Virus record (IMG/VR): IMGVR_UViG_3300042482_000702
Coordinates: 11,355 to 75,354 of that record
DNA from: a virus
Length of the DNA stretch: 64,000 bases
Direction: 5' to 3' (one strand)
The notes below the pieces were generated by a model, which had not been told where the DNA came from, did not search any database, and saw only the letters and a program-made list of their open reading frames with translations. Below are positions 32 to 64,000 of the stretch, piece by piece (positions within the stretch are counted from its first letter, which is position 1; every line of letters begins with the position of its first letter). A program made the translations under genes and the position numbers.

Positions 32-427
32 TCATAATTTTTTAATCCATTTATTATCCGAGTTCAACAAAAATTCCCCAACAAAATCTTTTCCACGATT
101 CCATTCATCTGGACCGATAAGTGATAATGTTAATTCTCCAGCAAAGGTATATAAAAAATATGACTTTCCAACTATCGGCTCAAAAGAAATTTTAGATTCC
201 CAAACCATAATAGATGTATTGTACTCTTCATACATTTTTTCAATCCTTTCTTTTATCTCTTGATGTTCCCTGTTGAAGACATCCATCATCTTTTTTGACG
301 CTTCACTTCTAAACAAGGGAACATTGGGTAAATCAAAACTTTGACTACCAGCACTTGTGGGATATGTCCTTAACTTTGCGTCATACCCATCTTTTTCACT
401 CCAAACTATTAAATCAGGTTTTTTCAA
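32..427 (-). CDS. hypothetical protein (131 aa)
   Basis: Long ORF, AT-rich codon usage typical of window; no recognisable motif. Confidence 0.45.
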   Translation of the reverse strand: MKKPDLIVWSEKDGYDAKLRTYPTSAGSQSFDLPNVPLFRSEASKKMMDVFNREHQEIKERIEKMYEEYNTSIMVWESKISFEPIVGKSYFLYTFAGELTLSLIGPDEWNRGKDFVGEFLLNSDNKWIKKL

Positions 428-684
428 TTTAAATAACTTTGTTTATTTATAACAACATCGTAACCCGTAAAATTACTTAATTGTTCTCCCACATCTCCTT
501 TCATATTATCCTCCCACAATAATTTATTATTTGAAGTACTCGCAATCGTTACAAATAATGCTGGGGTATCTTTAACCCATTCATTGTTTTCGTCTAATTT
601 ATTCCTATCCAATACCGTATACTCCGAGACAATACAACCAGGGTAAAAACATTCAATTAATTTATCAAACATTTTTCTTGTCAT
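424..684 (-). CDS. hypothetical protein (86 aa)
   Basis: ORF abutting downstream gene; N-terminus MTRKMFDKLIE contains L-I-E. Confidence 0.4.
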   Translation of the reverse strand: MTRKMFDKLIECFYPGCIVSEYTVLDRNKLDENNEWVKDTPALFVTIASTSNNKLLWEDNMKGDVGEQLSNFTGYDVVINKQSYLN

Positions 685-7969: not shown

Positions 7970-8212
7970 CTACGATTTAGTTTCCAAACCATATTTCTCG
8001 CAGAACCATTTGTTGAAAAGATAATTATAACTCCCATCACCAAAAAACATATTTAAGTCCCGAATAACAATAGATAACGCACCTGCCCTTTTCAAATATT
8101 TATAATATACACAAACACCATTGACGCAAATTGTATCATCGGTTTCATATATTTCCCTATCACCATAGGTTGATTCCAAATATTTAATAACACACAACTC
8201 CGTCTTGGTCAT
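7970..8212 (-). CDS. hypothetical Cys-containing protein (80 aa)
   Basis: ORF; promoter element TACCTTTG (8222-8229 minus) upstream. Confidence 0.45.
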   Translation of the reverse strand: MTKTELCVIKYLESTYGDREIYETDDTICVNGVCVYYKYLKRAGALSIVIRDLNMFFGDGSYNYLFNKWFCEKYGLETKS

Positions 8213-8239
8213 ATATTTTTTTTACAAAGGTACAACAAT

Positions 8240-8881
8240 TTATTCAAATAAAAAAGGGGGTGGGGGGATTTGGAACCGACCGGAGGGAGTTCGGGTTATC
8301 AAACTATCATACACATTACAAATGTCTTGCTCATTAAGACCCAAGTATTTTTTTGTAATACACGTACTTAAATGACCAAATAATTCCTTCAATAAAATTA
8401 AACTTTCATTTGAATAATTATTCACTTCTAATACCCTTCTACCAAATGTTTTCCTAAAAGTATGTGTTGAAACATTCCCATCTAATTTTATTCTATACTT
8501 TTTTACCAATTCTTTAAGTTTTACATTCACATAAGATTTATCAATTGATTTAGTTCCGTACTTATTTATGAATATAAGTTGATTTAAATTAGTTATGTTG
8601 GATTTTAAAACAATCCTGTCAACAATCTCTTTTAAATCTTTATTTACTTTAACATTTCTTTGTTTTTTTGATTTTACCTCTCTGAATGTAAAAGTTTCAT
8701 TACTTAATAAATCTGAATAAGTAAGTTTTAATAAATCTGAAATCCTTAAACCTGTAAAAACCCCAATTGAAACTAAAAGACAGAATTTATAATGTTCATC
8801 TTTTTCTAATTTTGTAATTAATGATATAAAATCATTCCACTCAAAATATGCTGTAGTTATATTTTGTCCTCTGTTACTCAT
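8240..8881 (-). CDS. tyrosine recombinase / phage integrase family (213 aa, catalytic domain only)
   Basis: GLRISDLLKL (Arg I), HTFRKTFGRRV (HxxR), LLKELFGHLSTCITKKYLGL (His/Tyr) motif order typical of tyrosine recombinases. Confidence 0.7.
   Translation of the reverse strand: MSNRGQNITTAYFEWNDFISLITKLEKDEHYKFCLLVSIGVFTGLRISDLLKLTYSDLLSNETFTFREVKSKKQRNVKVNKDLKEIVDRIVLKSNITNLNQLIFINKYGTKSIDKSYVNVKLKELVKKYRIKLDGNVSTHTFRKTFGRRVLEVNNYSNESLILLKELFGHLSTCITKKYLGLNEQDICNVYDSLITRTPSGRFQIPPPPFLFE
8255..8296. repeat. att-like direct repeat copy A (part 1)
   Basis: Matches copy B with 2 mismatches; encodes integrase C-terminal PPPPFLFE. Confidence 0.6.
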
Positions 8882-10005: not shown

Positions 10006-11712
10006 TTATTTATTTTTTAAATTAACCATATAAGAACATACCTCATCAAACCAACCATTTCTTTTTGCACCTTTGTAAGCACCTGAGTATAATTTTTGAA
10101 ATTCTGTTTTTGACCTACATTTTAAGGCAATCATTTCAACATTTTCTTTAATATCCCAATGCCCTATACTTTGTTTAGTTAATACCATATGCGAACATAC
10201 TTCATCCAACCACCCGTTTTTTAATGCCGAATTGTATGCCCCCCCGCAATGTTTGGAAAACTCAGACCTATTTTTATACTTCAATGATTCCTTTTTAATA
10301 TCCTCAATATTACCCCATTTTGAATTAAACTTTGGATATATGGAAAACACCTCATCCGACCATCCATTACTTCTAACAATCAAATAAGCTCCGGGACAAG
10401 ATTTTTTAAATTCTGTCTTTGACTTATATTTTTTCGCCTCATCTTTAATATCCTCAATGGTTTTCCATTTCCCATATAATATTTCCATATGAGAACATAC
10501 TTCATCTAACCAACCATTTCTTTTTGCGGATTTATACGCTGAAACATATAATTTATTAAATTCTGATTTTGTGTTACATTTTTTTGCAACCGTTTCAACA
10601 TTTGATTTAATATCCCAATATCCCATATCACCTTGTATTAGGTTTTCTTTAGGAAATAGAATATCCAACCAACCATTTCTATAAGCACCTTCGGATGCCG
10701 CTCTACATCCCCTCGCAAATTCTTTTCGGATTCTATATTTCACAGCTTCTTTTTGGACATTTTCAAAAATATCCCACTGACCACTCCTTAACACCATATG
10801 AGAACAAACCTCTTCTAACCAACCATTTTTGCGAGCAATTGATGAAGCCCCACCTGAATATCTATGGAAATCACTCCTATTGTCAAAAGTTAGCGCAATT
10901 TCTTTTATAGATTCTAAATCCCACATTCTTGAATAACTTCCTAAAGAACCGGATTTGGCTATGTTTACGGGATTGTAACCTAATTCAATGTAATTATCAA
11001 CCCATTTTTGTTCATATTCACCAGCAATATTAACATCAACAGGGGTTTCAGTAATTAATCTAAATATTGGAGAACCATATTCTTTTATGGTCTTAAATAC
11101 AATACAACTTTCAGTATTAAGATGTTCATTTTTCCTTCTTTTATAGTTTTCGGTTAAACCCACATAAACAAGTTTTACTTCTTCCCATATGAACGCGTAA
11201 ATATATCTAGGGGAGTCATTTATGTTTGGAGTCATATGTGAACAAACTTCATCATACCAACCTTTTCTACGAGCAATTTCAGCAACATATTTATGTTTAC
11301 CCTGACAAAAATCACTTCTATTATCATACATTAGAGCAATATCTTTAATCGATTCAAAATCCCACTTACTTTCACCTTTTTTAATCCCACATTTAATAAT
11401 CATATGTGAACAGACCTCATCAATCCAACCTTTTCTTACCGCTTGGAGATACGCTCCAGTATTTTGTTCATTAAATTCTGTTCGTGTTTCATATTTTAAC
11501 GCCACCTCCCAAACAGATTCTTTATTCCAAGAATTATTTCTTTTTTTAATAAGAGGTTGAGTTAATTCATCATACCAACCATTTTTTAGTAAAGAGTTAA
11601 GAATAGAAGTGCCTTGTAATTCATTAAGGTATGTCATATTAGATATACCCACCTTACATCTTTCGTATGTCCAATAACCGTAGGGTTTTTTTTCAGGTTT
11701 ATTTTCTATCAT
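10006..11712 (-). CDS. GIY-YIG domain protein flanked by ~11 tandem NGW.DEVCSHM repeats (568 aa)
   Basis: Central YIYAFIWEEVKLVYVGLTENYKRRKNEHL GIY-YIG core; repeated ~45-aa units ending (K/R)(N/K)GW(L/Y/F)DEVCSHM on both sides. Confidence 0.55.
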   Translation of the reverse strand: MIENKPEKKPYGYWTYERCKVGISNMTYLNELQGTSILNSLLKNGWYDELTQPLIKKRNNSWNKESVWEVALKYETRTEFNEQNTGAYLQAVRKGWIDEVCSHMIIKCGIKKGESKWDFESIKDIALMYDNRSDFCQGKHKYVAEIARRKGWYDEVCSHMTPNINDSPRYIYAFIWEEVKLVYVGLTENYKRRKNEHLNTESCIVFKTIKEYGSPIFRLITETPVDVNIAGEYEQKWVDNYIELGYNPVNIAKSGSLGSYSRMWDLESIKEIALTFDNRSDFHRYSGGASSIARKNGWLEEVCSHMVLRSGQWDIFENVQKEAVKYRIRKEFARGCRAASEGAYRNGWLDILFPKENLIQGDMGYWDIKSNVETVAKKCNTKSEFNKLYVSAYKSAKRNGWLDEVCSHMEILYGKWKTIEDIKDEAKKYKSKTEFKKSCPGAYLIVRSNGWSDEVFSIYPKFNSKWGNIEDIKKESLKYKNRSEFSKHCGGAYNSALKNGWLDEVCSHMVLTKQSIGHWDIKENVEMIALKCRSKTEFQKLYSGAYKGAKRNGWFDEVCSYMVNLKNK

Positions 11713-11724
11713 AATAATTTTTTA

Positions 11725-11732
11725 CAAAGATA
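11725..11732 (-). promoter_or_regulatory. TATCTTTG -7 promoter element for gene starting at 11712
   Basis: Exact motif 13 nt upstream of ATG. Confidence 0.4.
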
Positions 11733-11771
11733 TAATAAAGATTCCATACATCCAAATTTATTTTCAAAAAA

Positions 11772-11855
11772 AAGGGGGCGGGGGGATTTGGAACCGACCG
11801 GAGGGAGTCCGGGTGGTATGTCATCCCCCAATCCTATCTAAAGAAAATGGGGTTG
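11772..11855. repeat. att-like repeat copy B (part 1 + part 2)
   Basis: Part 1 matches 8255-8296; part 2 (CCCCAATCCTATCTAAAGAAAATGGGG) matches 12300-12328. Confidence 0.6.
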
Positions 11856-11887
11856 TATAATTAAATTATTATTTATATCTTTGTAAA

Positions 11888-12316
11888 ATGAAAAATAGTA
11901 TTACAATTTTATTAGATAGATGTTTTGAGTGTGGAACAATAGGTGATGTTGACTTACATCATGTTGTTCCCAAAAGTAAAGGGGGGACACAAATGATTCC
12001 ACTATGTTTATCCTGTCATTCAAAAGTTCACGGAGAACATATGTTAGAAATTAGAAAACTTGCGATGGAGGCAAAAAAAATAAAAATGAATGATTATAAA
12101 GAAAATGGAATACCCCATAATTTTGGTAGAAAAGTTGGGTCAAAAGAGAATAGAGAAACCTTTATGAATAAACAAACAACTAAAGACATTATTTATTTAT
12201 TATCATTCGAAGATAACACTATAAGAGAAATCGCCAAAATGGTTAAATGTTCAACAAGAACTGTTCAAAAAGTTAAAAAAATTATTAATGAATTAAATAT
12301 CCCCAATCCTATCTAA
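11888..12316 (+). CDS. HNH endonuclease (142 aa) with C-terminal HTH-like region
   Basis: CFECGTIGDVDLHHVVPKSKGG...CLSCHSKVHG = HNH motif with Zn-binding Cys pairs; TATCTTTG 5 nt before ATG (leaderless). Confidence 0.7.
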   Translation: MKNSITILLDRCFECGTIGDVDLHHVVPKSKGGTQMIPLCLSCHSKVHGEHMLEIRKLAMEAKKIKMNDYKENGIPHNFGRKVGSKENRETFMNKQTTKDIIYLLSFEDNTIREIAKMVKCSTRTVQKVKKIINELNIPNPI

Positions 12317-12328
12317 AGAAAACGGGGG
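12300..12328. repeat. att-like repeat copy C (part 2), at HNH gene 3-prime end
   Basis: CCCCAATCCTATCTAAAGAAAACGGGGG; the two part-2 copies bracket the HNH gene. Confidence 0.55.
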
Positions 12329-12797
12329 TGGAATCAATAATATCCATAAGACCCTCAACCCTTATACCAACCTTATCATAAACCATATAGTTAATCTCAT
12401 CATTATTTCTTGTATATAAAGTAACATCCCTATGTTCCTTCTCCGTTAATAAGATAGTTGAAGAATACTTACGAAGTAATTCAATGAATCCTTCAACACT
12501 CATATCAGGATTCTCACTCAACTTATCAAAGATAATCTCCATACATAATGACCTCTGAATATAATGGTCATCAACTCCCTTACCCCCACTCTGAATCAAA
12601 CCATCCGATTTTAATCCCGTCTTGAAATACTTAATGTTAGTTAAATCCCATATTGGGTTACGGTTCCTTGAACAGAACTCCTTCAATAATACCTTATCGT
12701 TCTTAACCTCGTTGAATCGTACAACCAAACACTTAAAGTCCTTTAAGGTTTCCTCAATCTTCCGCAATTTTAATGATGATATTTTCATAGACCACAA
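12309..12797 (-). CDS. hypothetical protein (162 aa)
   Basis: ORF; palindromic operator-like site upstream. Confidence 0.5.
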   Translation of the reverse strand: MWSMKISSLKLRKIEETLKDFKCLVVRFNEVKNDKVLLKEFCSRNRNPIWDLTNIKYFKTGLKSDGLIQSGGKGVDDHYIQRSLCMEIIFDKLSENPDMSVEGFIELLRKYSSTILLTEKEHRDVTLYTRNNDEINYMVYDKVGIRVEGLMDIIDSTPVFFR

Positions 12798-54256: not shown

Positions 54257-55687
54257 TTATTGGATACAAACCACATCTCGATAAGTTGCGATGTCAGCAG
54301 CACCATTAAAAATACCAGCAGCGTTTGCACCAGTTGTTGGTGATAATACAGTAATATTAGTTACAGTATTAACATTATTAACAGATATTATAGGACCCAT
54401 AAATAAAATATTTCCATCAGATAACGCAGAAATTTTATTTGAGGGGAACCATTCATTTGTTGGTTCGTTTCTATATGATGCAAATGTAGTCCAAGTTCCG
54501 TCATTTAAACCAGTAGTTAATACTCTAGCAATACCAGTTTTTGTACCCACCAGAGTTCCCACCTGTGTGAATTTACCCGCAAGAATAACTTTTCCTCCTT
54601 GACCAGGTTGGTCTAACATAGAAGTAATTGGCCCATTGCACTGTGGATACCAACTAGTGTCTAAAACACCAGCAGCACTAAGTCTAACAGGATTTAATCC
54701 TGTAGAATTAAGACTACCTACCCCAGTAAATGAAGTAGTCCCTGTGTAACCAATCATAATTCTATTATTATTGTCTAACTGCATACAGGTTATACTACCT
54801 AAACCATCATTAGTTCTCGGGAAGACTGCGACATTAGAAGATGCAAAACTAGTATCGATTACACCATTTGCAGTAAGCTTTAGGATTCCACCATATGGGT
54901 TAAGAAAATTTCCAGCAACCAATATGCTCTGTTGGTCATTAGGTTGGACTAGAACAATCTTAACTGTCCCATTTACGGAATAAAATCCACTAGAGGCAAA
55001 TGAAGTATCGGTACTTCCATTAACATTTAATCTAGCAACGTATCCAGCACCAGTAGTAGTAGTGGTTGTTACGGTATTGACATACCCACCTAAAATAAGT
55101 TTACCATCTGATTGAGTATCAACTGATAGAATTGTATAAGGGAATGAAGAGGCACCAGAAAAAGTATAATCTTTACTACCATCAGGATTTAACCGAATAA
55201 TTCTCTGTATTGTTACCCCATCGTATGACGTTACAGTACCTACAACAACTATTTTACCATTAGATTGTTTAACAATTGACATTGGACCCGGAACTCCTTC
55301 AGCAGTCGGAAAAACAGACCCAAAATTAAACCCACTCCCAACATTAAAAGTTCTATCAAGACTTAAATTATTCGTTAATTTTACTATACCTACTGAAGAT
55401 GACCCAGAATAATTACTGAAAGTACCAATAATAATAGGACCTTGTGAAAACACTAAACTATAATCTTGGGATGGTGATGTGCTACAAGTACCTAAAGGCA
55501 CCACATACCCTCTAACTATCGAAGATGTAGTAGTATATGTGTATCCTGTCAATAATTGACCTTTAGTTATATTTGATGCTAATAGGATTGGTGTGGTACT
55601 AGTACCAGTATATCCAAATAAGTTAAATGCTGATACGGCGTATGAAGACCCCGAATATTCCGCTTGTAATGTAAATCTAATATCCAT
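54257..55687 (-). CDS. Ser/Thr/Gly/Val-rich beta-rich protein, probable virion fibre/adhesin component (476 aa)
   Basis: Composition and position next to fibre genes. Confidence 0.45.
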   Translation of the reverse strand: MDIRFTLQAEYSGSSYAVSAFNLFGYTGTSTTPILLASNITKGQLLTGYTYTTTSSIVRGYVVPLGTCSTSPSQDYSLVFSQGPIIIGTFSNYSGSSSVGIVKLTNNLSLDRTFNVGSGFNFGSVFPTAEGVPGPMSIVKQSNGKIVVVGTVTSYDGVTIQRIIRLNPDGSKDYTFSGASSFPYTILSVDTQSDGKLILGGYVNTVTTTTTTGAGYVARLNVNGSTDTSFASSGFYSVNGTVKIVLVQPNDQQSILVAGNFLNPYGGILKLTANGVIDTSFASSNVAVFPRTNDGLGSITCMQLDNNNRIMIGYTGTTSFTGVGSLNSTGLNPVRLSAAGVLDTSWYPQCNGPITSMLDQPGQGGKVILAGKFTQVGTLVGTKTGIARVLTTGLNDGTWTTFASYRNEPTNEWFPSNKISALSDGNILFMGPIISVNNVNTVTNITVLSPTTGANAAGIFNGAADIATYRDVVCIQ

Positions 55688-61700: not shown

Positions 61701-64000
61701 GTAGTGTCGCACAGTTTTTATCGCCTCCACCGATTGTTGTATAACTATTAGATGCGATATTACCTCGACCACCACCGATTGTTGCAAAATCTCCAGAAGC
61801 AGTATTACCATAACCATACCACCCTCCATTATTAAAACACTTACCACCACCACCAATTGTTGAACTAACACCGGAAGCTTTGTTATGACCACCACCACCA
61901 ATTGTTGAGGTACTACCGGAAGCAATGTTATAACCACCTCCACCTATTGTTGACCGATAAGTAGAAGCAGTATTATTTTCACCACCACCAATTGTTGTCC
62001 AATAGGCTGAAGCTTTATTACAAACACCCCCACCAACAGTAGAGTTTAAACCTCCGGATTTATTACAAGTTCCACCACCAATTGTTGAACCATAACCATA
62101 ACTATTATTACACTTACCACCACCTATTGTTGCTCGAGGATTTGAAGCTGAATTATTTTCACCACCTCCAATTGTTGTATAGTAACCTGTTGCGCAGTTC
62201 CTAAAACCACCACCAATGGTTGACAATACACCAGAATTAAAACAAATCGTAGTTCCAGTTAATAGACCTGTTGAATAAGTAAATGTTCCTCCGGAAGTAT
62301 TATGCCCAATACCTCCACCAATTGTCACACCTAAAGATTTATTTTCATTAGGTAATGATTGAATTACATTTCTATGTCCTCCACCAATAAATGACATTCT
62401 TGCGTTTGTTGTATTACGATAACCACCAACAACTGTTGAATAAGTCCCACTACTAATATTACATTTCCCTCCTAAAGACGCTGAATAATTCCCTATTGAA
62501 GTATTCAAAACACCACATCTAACAGACGAACAAGTACCACCACCTAATACAATGACTGGAGGTTCAGGACTTGTTCCGCTAGTCCCCGCAGAACCAGTTG
62601 CTCCACTAGTCCCTGACGAACCATTTACTCCACTAGTTCCTGACGAACCATTTACTCCACTAGTTCCTGATGTTCCTCTAGTTCCTGACGAACCTGACGA
62701 ACCTGTCGCTCCACTAGTTCCTGACGAACCTGTCGCTCCACTAGTTCCTGACGAACCATTTACTCCACTAGTTCCTGACGAACCTGTTGCCCCACTAGTT
62801 CCTGACGAACCATTTACTCCACTAGTTCCTGACGAACCATTTACTCCACTAGTTCCTGACGAACCTGTCGCTCCACTAGTTCCTGATGTTCCTGTTGCCC
62901 CACTAGTTCCTGATGTTCCTCTAGTTCCTGACGAACCTGACGAACCATTTGCTCCACTAGTCCCTGACGAACCATTTACTCCACTAGTTCCTGACGAACC
63001 TGTTGCTCCACTAGTTCCTGATGTTCCTCTAGTTCCTGACGAACCTGACGAACCTGTCGCTCCACTAGTTCCTGACGAACCTGTCGCTCCACTAGTTCCT
63101 GACGAACCATTTACTCCACTAGTTCCTGACGAACCTGTTGCCCCACTAGTTCCTGACGAACCTGTTGCCCCACTAGTTCCTGACGAACCATTTACTCCAC
63201 TAGTTCCTGACGAACCTGTCGCTCCACTAGTTCCTGACGAACCATTCGCTCCCGATGTTCCTGATGTTCCTCTATTTCCTGACGAACCTGACGAACCTGT
63301 TGCACCACTAGTTCCTGACGAACCTGTTGCACCACTAGTTCCTGACGAACCATTTGCTCCCGATGTTCCTGACGAACCATTTGCTCCCGATGTTCCTGAC
63401 GCTCCACTAGTTCCCGATGAACCTGTTGCTCCCGATGTTCCTGACGCTCCACTAGTTCCCGATGAACCTGTTGCTCCCGATGTTCCTGACGAACCATTTG
63501 CTCCCGATGTTCCTGACGCTCCACTAGTTCCCGATGAACCTGTTGCTCCCGATGTTCCTGATGAACCTGTTGCTCCCGATGTTCCTGACTCTCCACTAGT
63601 TCCCGATGTTCCTGACTCTCCACTAGTTCCCGATGAACCTGTTGCACCACTAGTTCCTGATGAACCTGTTGTTCCACTAGTTCCTGACGCTCCACTAGTT
63701 CCTGACGAACCTGTTGTTCCACTAGTTCCTGACGCTCCACTAGTTCCTGACGAACCATTTGCTCCCGATGTTCCCGATGAACCTGTTGCTCCCGATGTTC
63801 CTGACGAACCATTTGCTCCCGATGTTCCTGACGCTCCACTAGTTCCCGATGAACCTGTTGCTCCACTAGTTCCTGACGAACCTGTTGCTCCCGATGTTCC
63901 TGACGCTCCACTAGTTCCTGATGAACCTGTTGCACCACTAGTTCCTGATGTTCCGGATGAACCACTAACACCTGAAGTTCCACTAGAACCATTTGCTCCT
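58723..64000 (-). CDS. giant fibre protein: N-terminal collagen-like Gly-X-Y domain fused to a >1200-aa IGGG beta-helix repeat array (partial; N-terminus beyond window)
   Basis: Gly-X-Y collagen-like frame (GTSGVNGSSGTSGAT...) stays open from 64000 down to the annotated start at 62508, which is a TTG (Leu) codon in that same frame; ~40 x S-T-I-G-G-G-x-x-N-x-A repeats in 58723-62508. Confidence 0.7.
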   Translation of the reverse strand, partial: GANGSSGTSGVSGSSGTSGTSGATGSSGTSGASGTSGATGSSGTSGATGSSGTSGASGTSGANGSSGTSGATGSSGTSGANGSSGTSGASGTSGTTGSSGTSGASGTSGTTGSSGTSGATGSSGTSGESGTSGTSGESGTSGATGSSGTSGATGSSGTSGASGTSGANGSSGTSGATGSSGTSGASGTSGATGSSGTSGASGTSGANGSSGTSGANGSSGTSGATGSSGTSGATGSSGSSGNRGTSGTSGANGSSGTSGATGSSGTSGVNGSSGTSGATGSSGTSGATGSSGTSGVNGSSGTSGATGSSGTSGATGSSGSSGTRGTSGTSGATGSSGTSGVNGSSGTSGANGSSGSSGTRGTSGTSGATGTSGTSGATGSSGTSGVNGSSGTSGVNGSSGTSGATGSSGTSGVNGSSGTSGATGSSGTSGATGSSGSSGTRGTSGTSGVNGSSGTSGVNGSSGTSGATGSAGTSGTSPEPPVIVLGGGTCSSVRCGVLNTSIGNYSASLGGKCNISSGTYSTVVGGYRNTTNARMSFIGGGHRNVIQSLPNENKSLGVTIGGGIGHNTSGGTFTYSTGLLTGTTICFNSGVLSTIGGGFRNCATGYYTTIGGGENNSASNPRATIGGGKCNNSYGYGSTIGGGTCNKSGGLNSTVGGGVCNKASAYWTTIGGGENNTASTYRSTIGGGGYNIASGSTSTIGGGGHNKASGVSSTIGGGGKCFNNGGWYGYGNTASGDFATIGGGRGNIASNSYTTIGGGDKNCATLRYSTVGGGQCNTASNYRSTIGGGYRNQASGSLSTVGGGNCNIASGTLSFVGGGGRTYSGYKTNIAFGYASVVVGGQGNIASGTTSNILGGYLNQIKCKNSTILGGQGNTIQGCSSTIGGGVLNVVGQQTIFIGNPYKTNYATLYFYGDVSPYFTIGNNILSYNPNYGKTIQSDVDSIVLSNTGYPSYYDVTLVNLQNNVGTTFGELYFINRSTITDGGKNITIAGGFKNYAKGNCSFIGGGNNNKANGEGSFIGGGNSNCTTQSNSTVGGGVLNKAFGDTSTIGGGCCNTVMNVIGSTISGGKSNCVGNRYSSIGGGCYNKISSCYSSIGGGCSNCIVSTCSTIGGGRLNRACGNSSTIGGGWLNCTCGTLSFIGGGSCNRAFGGDSTIGGGFYNRVLSGGTFSSIVGGRVNLISTTMSTIGGGRCNIITGTTSQCGEDAVIAGGLSNKTFRTRAAILGGCGNYACGYGSGIVSGNNNKSATNMTFVGGGHVNVVCGYQGGIAGGVLNMVGNSPKIQSSIVIGNCSLRFIGNLTSCFTTNDLLLTFDNNACSRNVVVTASTYTSGSYIGYTDINVTGATGSVQVFGIGNEPLVRNLTKSLGGGNSSFIGGGIGNTANACGSVIGGGICNVTCGCHSTIGGGSGNIASGNYSTIGGGGGFKVTGNTSSPGYFPMMGSVGNIATGFTSTVSGGRLNKSFGYSSTIGGGQHNIARGAGSFIGGGYNEYYSSTYPNINNIASGVNSTIGGGWSNCAYGVRSFIGGGFRNSVSDSCTTIAGGSINCGKKGSFIGGGDQNCAVGYCSFVGAGNGNWACASLSSILGGTYNRIPSSFNNSNIIGSNITANRSNTTFVNNLNIEKNKIFTVPVNNGGAGEVVYFGVGTSLTAGSVYYYSTGGTWTLADATTVVTSLGLLGMALGTTIAGGMLLRGYAKFSTTSFTSATLGSILYVSTTAGEFSSISPPVSGNNVRIIGYCTDATNDIIYFCPDNSWVEVL

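Follow-up and report, generated by a model that had tools for sequence, protein, structure and literature searches.

The window, a 64,000-nucleotide (64-kb) stretch of viral DNA, carries on its minus strand a complete gene that starts with ATG and encodes a protein of 568 amino acids, in which three repeats, a GIY-YIG core and six further repeats follow one another (Table 1). The open reading frame, which had been picked out from the sequence alone, is confirmed by the ORF list. The gene encodes a large-phage GIY-YIG nuclease lying between nine copies of an uncharacterised helical module of ~43 residues. At least 11 metagenome contigs, of up to 322 kb, carry the identical protein; a near-identical phage was not found in GenBank, and the window holds no further family copies. 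A Bacteroidota-type -7 motif precedes the window gene and is also found before an 80-aa gene (TACCTTTG) and an HNH gene; from the known Bacteroidota promoter consensus, we take TAnnTTTG to be a promoter. Upstream lies one copy of a direct repeat that occurs twice in the window, with a 60-nt core that is 90% identical between the copies. Together, these copies bracket a 3.5-kb block of exactly four genes: the window gene, a resolvase (serine recombinase), a small GIY-YIG gene and an integrase-like (tyrosine recombinase) gene. Rfam gave no structured RNA match in this GC-rich direct repeat.

Table 1 Features of the window gene and its upstream region (positions in the window; residues of the 568-aa protein in brackets)
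Feature	Positions	Strand	Basis
Complete gene, 568-aa protein, r3-GIY-YIG-r6	10006-11712	-	ORF list
Repeat 9	10027-10158 (aa 519-562)	-	Repeat HMM
Repeat 8, also modelled alone	10186-10317 (aa 466-509)	-	Repeat HMM
Repeat 7, variant ending ...GWSDEVFSIY	10336-10467 (aa 416-459)	-	Repeat HMM
Repeat 6	10486-10617 (aa 366-409)	-	Repeat HMM
Repeat 5, variant ending ...GWLDILFPKE	10645-10776 (aa 313-356)	-	Repeat HMM
Repeat 4	10795-10923 (aa 264-306)	-	Repeat HMM
GIY-YIG core; Y172, Y183, G185, R193, H197, E234, N250	10939-11223 (aa ~164-258)	-	Pfam, conservation, Foldseek, profile
Repeat 3	11233-11364 (aa 117-160)	-	Repeat HMM
Repeat 2	11401-11529 (aa 62-104)	-	Repeat HMM
Repeat 1, degenerate, without CSHM, 20-32% identity to other units	11542-11673 (aa 14-57)	-	Motif reading and repeat HMM
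~100-nt direct repeat, upstream copy; partner at 8209-8296	11709-11814		Only two copies in the 64-kb window
Bacteroidota-type -7 motif TAnnTTTG (TATCTTTG), 13 nt before the ATG	11725-11732	-	Sequence reading

The core contains the module YIYAFIW...YVGLTENYKRRKNEH, which the sequence-only reading had described as canonical GIY-YIG; Pfam, residue conservation and an I-TevI-like model bear this out. The 'GIY' and 'YIG' motifs are present as YIY (170-172) and YVG (183-185). Pfam PF01541 matches residues 170-241 with 22.1 bits against a gathering cut-off of 22.6, and three homologs (P0003, P0005 and P0012) lie above that cut-off, at 31.6-37.3 bits. Y172, Y183, G185, R193, E234 and N250 are invariant in a 21-sequence core alignment and at least 90% conserved across 62 homologs; the catalytic Arg and Glu, whose absence would have spoken against a nuclease, are thus both there (R193 and E234). 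When the full-length AF2 model was compared with the PDB by Foldseek, the sole meaningful match was the catalytic domain of I-TevI (1ln0/1mk0; probability 1.0, TM 0.66-0.72, with an r.m.s.d. of 3.0 Å at TM 0.72), with UvrC structures reaching probabilities of 0.6-0.9; the predicted core has the three-stranded sheet with helices of the I-TevI/UvrC type. Among PDB sequences, the family profile matched I-TevI, UvrC, EndoII and Slx1. Its alignment to I-TevI (E 5e-4) pairs Tyr, Tyr-x-Gly, Arg, His and Glu; in 1mk0, the last three fall opposite R27, H31 and position 75, and the family Asn (N250) lies no more than three residues from the aligned I-TevI N90. PHROG 5123, 'homing endonuclease with GIY-YIG motif', matched weakly. 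Judged by its sequence and predicted model, the core is an I-TevI-type GIY-YIG nuclease whose catalytic residues are intact.

The remainder of the protein consists of repeat units, each a core of 43-44 aa plus a linker of 6-12 aa, with the ending ...(K/R)(N/K)GW(L/Y/F/I/S)(D/E)EVCSHM recurring along the chain. An NGW-DEVCSHM-type repeat had been noticed beforehand, and the family repeat HMM and recurrence at the DNA level agree that it is real: the HMM detects nine units, and a 25-nt DNA core is found nine times inside the gene at a spacing of 150-168 nt. The count needs revision, with nine repeats in place of ~11, three rather than ~6 upstream of the core and six rather than ~5 downstream. 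Against Vibrio phage members, the HMM finds single units at E 1e-15 to 1e-21, and the repeats are far above chance level. The CSHM ending is missing from repeats 5 and 7, both of which are variants retained in orthologs (fifth repeat to fifth, 56-80%; seventh to seventh, 55-75%); the degenerate repeat 1 is likewise kept at the same position in close homologs (first to first, 61-76%). Among seven orthologs from the window protein's subfamily, same-index repeats share 61% identity versus 36% for different-index repeats, and positions that are conserved between orthologs yet vary between repeats are concentrated where helix 1 begins, in the turn between helices 2 and 3 and in the first half of helix 3. 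Within this subfamily the repeats thus keep an individual identity and are non-equivalent. Family-wide, the median pI is 9.4, and the repeats carry a mean net charge of +2.1, the linkers one of +1.6; the modal linker length is 9 aa (55% of 685 linkers), with the consensus xxx(K/R)KPxGY.

A whole-protein model of the AlphaFold type, which the sequence-only reading had proposed as a check, reproduces the GIY-YIG fold and leaves the repeats unpacked: the overall pLDDT is 88.9, pTM is 0.38 and confidence dips at every linker. Modelled alone, repeat 8 forms three helices and a short fourth (pLDDT 86). The predicted models therefore depict the repeats as independently folded helical beads on a string with flexible linkers. 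The repeat had been thought possibly to match a well-characterised domain, and no such match emerged: there was none among PDB structures or in the searched Pfam copy, and NCBIfam gave nothing for the window protein. TPR, Sel1, MORN and PPR, as well as NUMOD and helix-turn-helix models, had no Pfam match on the window protein or on 85 single repeats. Nor do the units pack against one another into a superhelix, as membership of a solenoid class (TPR, Sel1, PPR or armadillo) would entail, and no family profile of this kind matched. Homology to Myb/SANT, prompted by 'WTKEE...', a ~52-aa period and regularly spaced aromatics, was rejected at an hhalign probability of 5% against c-Myb R2R3; no profile or structural similarity to helix-turn-helix or Myb/SANT domains was detectable. 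A zinc site was considered as well. C40 and H42 co-occur, and with C6 they are the only three candidate ligands; in 38% of units, V/I/L stands in place of C6 while C40 and H42 are kept, and in the window protein C6 is present in repeat 1 only. With no more than these three candidates, the repeat probably has no canonical zinc site.

The architecture, unfamiliar at first reading, is indeed uncharacterised, but it is not peculiar to the window gene: it typifies a family of thousands, catalogued as being of 'unknown function'. The repeat family comprises 9,799 cluster representatives. It is strongly enriched in viruses, with 293 confirmed matches in IMG/VR versus 64 in 185,579 cellular species, where members are patchily spread over many phyla. 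PHROG 20046 matches the window protein at E 3e-81 over residues 114-410 (repeat, nuclease and repeats), and family members, among them the repeat-only P0062, repeatedly bear a precomputed PF26058 (DUF8019) tag, which is 'faint' on the window protein; both entries are labelled as unknown function. The literature searched held no description of the architecture, of DUF8019 or of the family genes of Vibrio and Rhizobium phages. Among 121 homologs there are 40 architectures, with 1-12 repeats before the nuclease and 2-11 after it, and some proteins consist of repeats only. The repeat is also fused to ResIII+Helicase_C SF2 helicases (48-67 bits, three independent proteins), to T5orf172 (25.8 bits against a cut-off of 20), to MUG113-like domains and to Vsr/DUF559/REase_MTES_1575 PD-(D/E)XK nucleases. 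All the fusion partners seen are enzymes that act on DNA. Whereas the window nuclease is internal, the helicase lies N-terminally, T5orf172 C-terminally and the PD-(D/E)XK domain mid-array; being shared with other enzyme classes in this way, the array is a portable module.

Relatives of the window gene come and go as single genes. At one intergenic site in Schizotequatrovirus, ValKK3 carries no family gene, phi-Grn1 one and Va3 two, with flanks that are 95-98% identical; in ValKK3 the empty site is the ORF84/ORF83 junction (KP671755, about 31.0-31.7 kb). Such single-gene presence/absence polymorphism, a hallmark of homing endonuclease genes, is therefore observed for relatives in Vibrio T4-like phages. 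Family genes occupy up to ten places per phage genome, and in Rhizobium phage they flank the primase gene. Relatives repeatedly occur in tandem and next to HNH genes, and an HNH gene (11888-12316) adjoins the window gene too. The empty ValKK3 site shows no visible periodic DNA motif mirroring the protein repeats. For the window gene itself, look-ups with flanking proteins showed it to be present on all contigs of sufficient length; many related contigs end at the repeat-rich gene, and the search for an empty site rests on those reaching it.

Taken together, we consider it probable (roughly 0.6) that the window gene encodes a free-standing, mobile (homing-type) GIY-YIG endonuclease, whose active site is flanked on both sides by non-equivalent DNA-binding modules that read the target. 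The sequence-only reading had left three options: DNA-targeting repeats on a homing nuclease, DNA-targeting repeats on a defence nuclease, or protein-interaction repeats. The first is favoured, the core being intact. DNA targeting gains support because the fusion partners are all DNA enzymes, the arrays are basic and the linkers regular; mobility does so because of the single-gene indels in phage relatives. In the scheme that we infer, which extends to DNA binding by the repeats, the target, the cleavage mechanism and homing of the window copy, every module, on either side, would make contact with a stretch of double-stranded DNA, so that the array would read a long, asymmetric site. The single active site would be held at the point of cleavage, flanked by the N-side and C-side arrays, and, like that of I-TevI and I-BmoI, might nick the two strands in turn. 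Where a genome without the gene had been cut, a gene-bearing copy would serve as the repair template, and the gene would spread.

Comparison with characterised enzymes brings out both the kinship and the novelty of this arrangement. I-TevI, I-BmoI and T4 SegA-G belong to the same catalytic class and have the conserved Tyr, Tyr-x-Gly, Arg, His, Glu and Asn seen in the window protein. As among these enzymes, the window gene is phage-borne and stands free between genes, and its relatives are presence/absence polymorphic. Of the major homing endonuclease families, the GIY-YIG enzymes are, to our knowledge, the one about which least is understood, and in all studied members that we know of a short DNA-binding tail has the nuclease at one of its ends. 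In I-TevI, a single catalytic domain is attached to several small DNA-binding modules in a row. I-BmoI is likewise built from a catalytic domain and such a row of modules (PMC3664794), and the window protein has this principle in common with both. However, the characterised enzymes place an N-terminal nuclease before a linker and C-terminal zinc-finger, NUMOD, IENR1 or helix-turn-helix elements, whereas the window nuclease sits within the chain, and its lack of NUMOD or helix-turn-helix matches sets it further apart from the classical I-TevI/Seg layout. An internal nuclease in a repeat array is also absent from the architectures listed in a 2006 survey of GIY-YIG proteins (PMC1564403). What is new is thus an I-TevI-type nuclease inside a long, plastic array of a small helical module without a solved structure. 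Zinc-finger arrays with their TGEKP linkers, TALEs and Myb repeats offer an analogy only, as tandem small modules of variable number that are fused to nucleases. The window family has in common with them a conserved fixed-length basic linker and residues on predicted helix surfaces that are specific to each module; the window repeat, for which no per-module base code is derivable, is related to none of them in sequence or structure, and the TALE superhelical solenoid differs from the window array.

A role in conflict, in which the phage enzyme degrades host or competitor DNA and bacterial copies act as stand-alone anti-phage genes whose arrays recognise foreign or modified DNA, strikes us as unlikely. 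It would be served equally by an intact catalytic core; some bacterial copies stand alone as islets in the chromosome, one beside a DUF4062 protein and one among accessory genes, the window gene is clustered with nuclease and recombinase genes, and the ResIII helicase fusions resemble restriction-like enzymes. However, PADLOC-DB returned no credible match for the protein or its neighbours (the sole match was a spurious 21.9-bit Csm2, and the neighbours gave nothing coherent), and the family is far commoner in viral than in cellular sequence. Multi-copy, tandem and fixed-site single-gene indels in phages follow the pattern of a selfish endonuclease, and long arrays of repeat-specific units suggest a rare, long site over broad degradation.

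It is very unlikely, in our view, that the repeats are instead protein-protein or scaffold modules, or RNA-binding modules of the PPR/PUF kind, tethering the nuclease to a replisome, packaging or transcription complex. The absence of solenoid packing (low pTM and low-confidence linkers), the restriction of fusion partners to DNA enzymes, the strongly basic arrays with their fixed-length basic linkers and the lack of Pfam matches to TPR, Sel1, MORN, PPR or other repeat families all argue against this. Highly improbable, finally, is that the window gene is cargo of a 3.5-kb integrative module between the direct repeats, moved with the module and not by its own cleavage: the exact bracketing of four genes, two of them recombinase genes, fits this, but the block is retained by all related contigs long enough to show it, the start-codon-proximal part of the direct repeat is a presumed promoter common to other genes, and the family occurs elsewhere without recombinases. 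As it concerns gene movement and not protein function, this last explanation is compatible with a homing-type endonuclease.

A bolder and quite unlikely reading is that the 43-aa unit is an unrecognised modular reader of double-stranded DNA, each unit covering a fixed number of base pairs via the variable residues where helix 1 begins, in the helix 2-3 turn and in helix 3. By shuffling and duplicating such units and grafting them onto nucleases and helicases, phages would retarget these enzymes, and the cleavage point would be set at the boundary of the two reading arms. If true, zinc fingers, TALEs and PPR/PUF repeats would be joined by a fourth natural 'programmable array' principle. Should the modules read DNA additively, the quick retargeting of selfish phage nucleases by gain, loss or swap of repeats would be explained, and the array would offer a compact scaffold for engineered site-specific nucleases. 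Phi-Grn1 or Va3 compared with ValKK3 provides a natural experimental system. Even otherwise, the analysis supplies a testable function for a large group of phage 'hypothetical proteins', which are often present in multiple copies in jumbo and T4-like phages.

The 568-aa open reading frame (ORF) is real, starts at an ATG and encodes a GIY-YIG core embedded in tandem repeats. Direct inspection and HMM analysis of its product reveal nine repeat units, three before the nuclease and six after it. The sequence-only reading was right about the gene, the repeat motif and the nuclease, but its count of ~11 units, split into ~6 and ~5, does not hold. Each repeat core of 43–44 residues, with the pattern W-x3-(V/I/C)-x3-A-x-K-(Y/C)-x2-(R/K)-x-(E/D)-F-x6-A-Y-x2-A-x-(K/R)-N-G-W-x-D-E-V-C-S-H-M, is followed by a linker of 6–12 residues. 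Unit 1 is degenerate, with 20–32% identity to the other units, whereas these share 30–70% pairwise identity; the CSHM ending is missing from units 5 and 7. At the DNA level, a 25-nt core occurs nine times within the gene, spaced by 150–168 nt. Several assemblies of the same phage (among metagenome contigs, L009, L010, L013 and L014) break within or beside the gene; the likely cause is its internal DNA repeats, which are hard for short-read assemblers to resolve, and the family may thus be under-represented or truncated in metagenomes.

Features of the 568-aa gene, its product (aa) and the surrounding window (nt)
Feature	Position	Strand	Remark
568-aa gene	10006–11712	−	
N-terminal repeats (n = 3)	aa 14–57, 62–104, 117–160		
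GIY-YIG module	aa ~164–258		
C-terminal repeats (n = 6)	aa 264–306, 313–356, 366–409, 416–459, 466–509, 519–562		
Serine recombinase gene, 244 aa	9253–9987	−	Resolvase, 86.6 bits
Small stand-alone GIY-YIG gene, 121 aa	8888–9253	−	Weak PADLOC PDC-S14 similarity
Short tyrosine-recombinase-like (integrase-like) gene, 213 aa	8240–8881	−	Phage_integrase, 62.4 bits
~100-nt direct repeat	8209–8296 and 11709–11814		GC-rich 60-nt core 90% identical; two copies only in 64 kb
HNH endonuclease gene	11888–12316	+	
30-nt direct repeat	11826–11855 and 12301–12330		93% identical; CCCCA...TGGGG hairpin-like
−7 promoter motifs TAnnTTTG, TATCTTTG / TACCTTTG	11725–11732 (−), 8224–8231 (−), ~11877–11884 (+)		Bacteroidota-type
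DUF5122 beta-propeller ORF	54257–55687		112 bits
tRNA-Leu(taa) call	54644–54732	−	ARAGORN
Two very large ORFs, 965 and 1261 aa	55815–62508	−	C-terminal Fib_succ_major domain in the first; no match in the second
GC-rich end of window	62001–64000		GC 0.47, versus ~0.30 elsewhere in the window
ORF within GC-rich end	63192–63992		Pfam, PHROG match not found

The motifs, catalytic residues and fold that define the GIY-YIG superfamily are all present in the protein. The Pfam PF01541 match (residues 170–241) scores 22.1 bits, slightly below the cut-off of 22.6, and Y172, Y183, G185, R193, E234 and N250 are conserved at ≥90% in an alignment of 62 family sequences; in a core alignment of 21 sequences the same six are invariant and H197 nearly so. 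Residues are numbered here as in the true protein; one family alignment and the full-length model omit residue 2 and therefore run one number lower. Compared with the PDB, this AlphaFold2 model (mean pLDDT 88.9) gives a single meaningful class of match, to the catalytic domain of I-TevI (1ln0 and 1mk0; probability 1.0, TM 0.66–0.72, r.m.s.d. 3.0–3.3 Å), followed by the UvrC GIY-YIG domain. The family core profile matches the PDB sequences of I-TevI, a UPF0213 protein, UvrC, T4 EndoII and Slx1, and aligns the family Tyr, Tyr-x-Gly, Arg, His and Glu with I-TevI Y6, Y17/G19, R27, H31 and position 75. Given these conserved catalytic residues and the I-TevI matches, the protein is a bona fide GIY-YIG nuclease; judged from alignment and model, it is very probably catalytically active. 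It is closest to the homing-endonuclease branch. The classical homing-endonuclease architecture is absent. We favor, at a probability of roughly 60%, its being a free-standing, homing-type endonuclease placed on DNA by two arms of DNA-binding modules.

The family to which it belongs is large, uncharacterized and mostly viral. A word-seeded search gave 1,939 matches. When the repeat profile was run exhaustively with HMMER over 1.84 billion cluster representatives, 9,799 proteins scored E ≤ 1e-3, of which 3,918 reached E ≤ 1e-30. The 121 close-to-moderate homologs fall into 40 architectures, with 1–12 repeats before the nuclease, 2–11 after it and 5–16 in total; each has at most one nuclease, and a few consist of repeats only. 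One phage-like contig bears 13 repeats over two adjacent ORFs without a nuclease. In some members internal repeats are 75–91% identical, indicating recent duplication.

IMG/VR holds 293 confirmed stretches, many on contigs of 100–675 kb, and several contigs have two copies. In GenBank, the family is present in, among others, Vibrio Schizotequatrovirus phages, Rhizobium phages, BcepSauron and Lak megaphages. For the Rhizobium phages there are seven family places in 68 kb, and two copies flank the primase gene. A single intergenic site in Schizotequatrovirus, with flanks 95–98% identical, is variably occupied: by no family gene in ValKK3 (six-frame HMM search negative), by one in phi-Grn1 (356 aa, two repeats before and three after the nuclease) and by two in tandem in Va3 (406 aa, three and three; and 356 aa). 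A ~48-nt element, made up of a terminator hairpin and a promoter, is present once at the empty site and in copies on either side of each cassette. This is single-gene mobility and is consistent with homing; recombination between the regulatory elements could also yield the pattern. The ValKK3 allele also contains a 104-bp segment (2764–2867 of the fetched locus), found in neither phi-Grn1 nor Va3; its product would be a CxxC...CxxC peptide, and the segment may have been left behind by another small gene or endonuclease that once occupied the site.

Only 64 cellular occurrences were found across 185,579 species (one genome each), dispersed among many phyla; one Cellvibrionaceae MAG alone has at least five copies. 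A solitary family gene lies on Vibrio scophthalmi chromosome 2, two lie in tandem in a Photobacterium region that resembles a plasmid or prophage, and a phage-like 131-kb contig carries two tandem members with an HNH gene. In Shewanella putrefaciens CP066369 (10189–11355 of the fetched locus), a member and a DUF4062-domain protein form a two-gene chromosomal islet between a class II tRNA-synthetase-like gene (tRNA-synt_2b and HGTP_anticodon domains) and the glycine-cleavage operon. Such a pairing could be of the defense type, and a conflict or defense nuclease is the alternative to which it speaks; PADLOC found no defense system for the 568-aa protein or its neighbors, and we regard that role as unlikely.

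We surveyed repeat-bearing ORFs in 148 fetched loci and in the length outliers of the exhaustive search, and identified with Pfam the segments left unexplained by the two HMMs. SF2 helicases (ResIII and Helicase_C; three independent proteins, 48–67 bits, well over cut-offs) precede 4–11 repeats; a T5orf172 domain (25.8 bits, cut-off 20) was found; MUG113-like GIY-YIG-clan domains follow 3–5 repeats (~18 bits, under cut-off); and Vsr-type PD-(D/E)XK nucleases (REase_MTES_1575, E 6e-7; DUF559, 17.6 bits, motif FDFYLP...VIEYQGRQH) lie mid-array in several proteins, where the GIY-YIG domain otherwise sits. All the partners found act on DNA. Of the evidence available, this association argues most strongly that the array is a module for binding or targeting DNA. 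Family-wide, linkers and repeats carry mean charges of +1.6 and +2.1, the median pI is 9.4, and the linker length is exactly 9 residues in 55% of 685 cases (consensus xxx(K/R)KPxGY). The 568-aa protein departs somewhat from this pattern: its linkers are shorter and non-canonical, its repeats 1–4 acidic and its repeats 5–9 basic. The repeat offers just three candidate metal ligands: C40 and H42, both present in 363 units and both absent in 69, and C6, freely exchanged for V, I or L. Binding of protein or RNA in place of DNA is, with such partners, improbable, and the sequence-only proposal of DNA-binding modules for a homing or defense nuclease, or else protein-interaction repeats, is supported in part only.

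The units are not interchangeable. Across the seven closest orthologs (53–57% overall identity, three repeats before and five or six after the nuclease), same-index repeats share 61% identity, compared with 36% between different indices, and the degenerate units 1, 5 and 7 are kept as such. Positions varying within a protein but kept between orthologous repeats are 2, 3 and 5 (start of helix 1), 15, 23–25 (helix 2–3 turn) and 27–29 (first half of helix 3). Such conservation is what one would predict for units that each read their own stretch of a long, asymmetric ligand, and it argues against a spacer or homotypic oligomerization role.

The window is AT-rich (~30% GC), with short, mostly co-directional ORFs largely lacking PHROG or Pfam matches, and freshwater metagenome contigs of up to 322 kb carry the identical protein; a jumbo phage is the most likely replicon. 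A Bacteroidota host is suggested by the Fib_succ_major and DUF5122 domains and by the TAnnTTTG motifs. These motifs lie ~10–13 nt 5′ of the start codons of the 568-aa, 80-aa and HNH genes, so near that leaders would be very short. The very large ORF products may be host-recognition or structural proteins, and the tRNA-Leu call, which conflicts with the well-supported DUF5122 ORF, is probably a false positive.

The 568-aa gene lies in a cluster of selfish-type genes. It forms, with both recombinase genes and the small GIY-YIG gene, a 3.5-kb block of four minus-strand genes flanked by the ~100-nt repeat; the other three genes follow immediately downstream of it. One repeat copy runs into the integrase-like ORF at its 3′ end, and the other is an isolated fragment of the same coding sequence; the two could mark, in the manner of att sites, the ends of a mini integrative module, or could stem from duplication of a gene junction. 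Serine and tyrosine recombinase types within 1.8 kb are unusual for a phage genome. The HNH gene, around which the 30-nt repeat occurs twice and nowhere else in the window, resembles a separate single-gene cassette. Passive carriage in the recombinase-bearing block, a reading about transport and not protein function, is very improbable; none of the related contigs lacks the gene or the block, mobility being seen in relatives and not in this copy.

As a homing-type endonuclease, the protein would carry a single I-TevI-like active site between two arms whose small, non-equivalent modules bind DNA and position it there. It shares with I-TevI and I-BmoI the ‘string of small modules’ organization (PMC3664794), but differs from them in its new module, its arms on both sides and its extreme copy-number plasticity. 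By analogy with zinc fingers and TALE repeats, the repeat unit might in principle even be a genuinely modular, recombinable DNA-reading element, a prospect that we consider quite unlikely.
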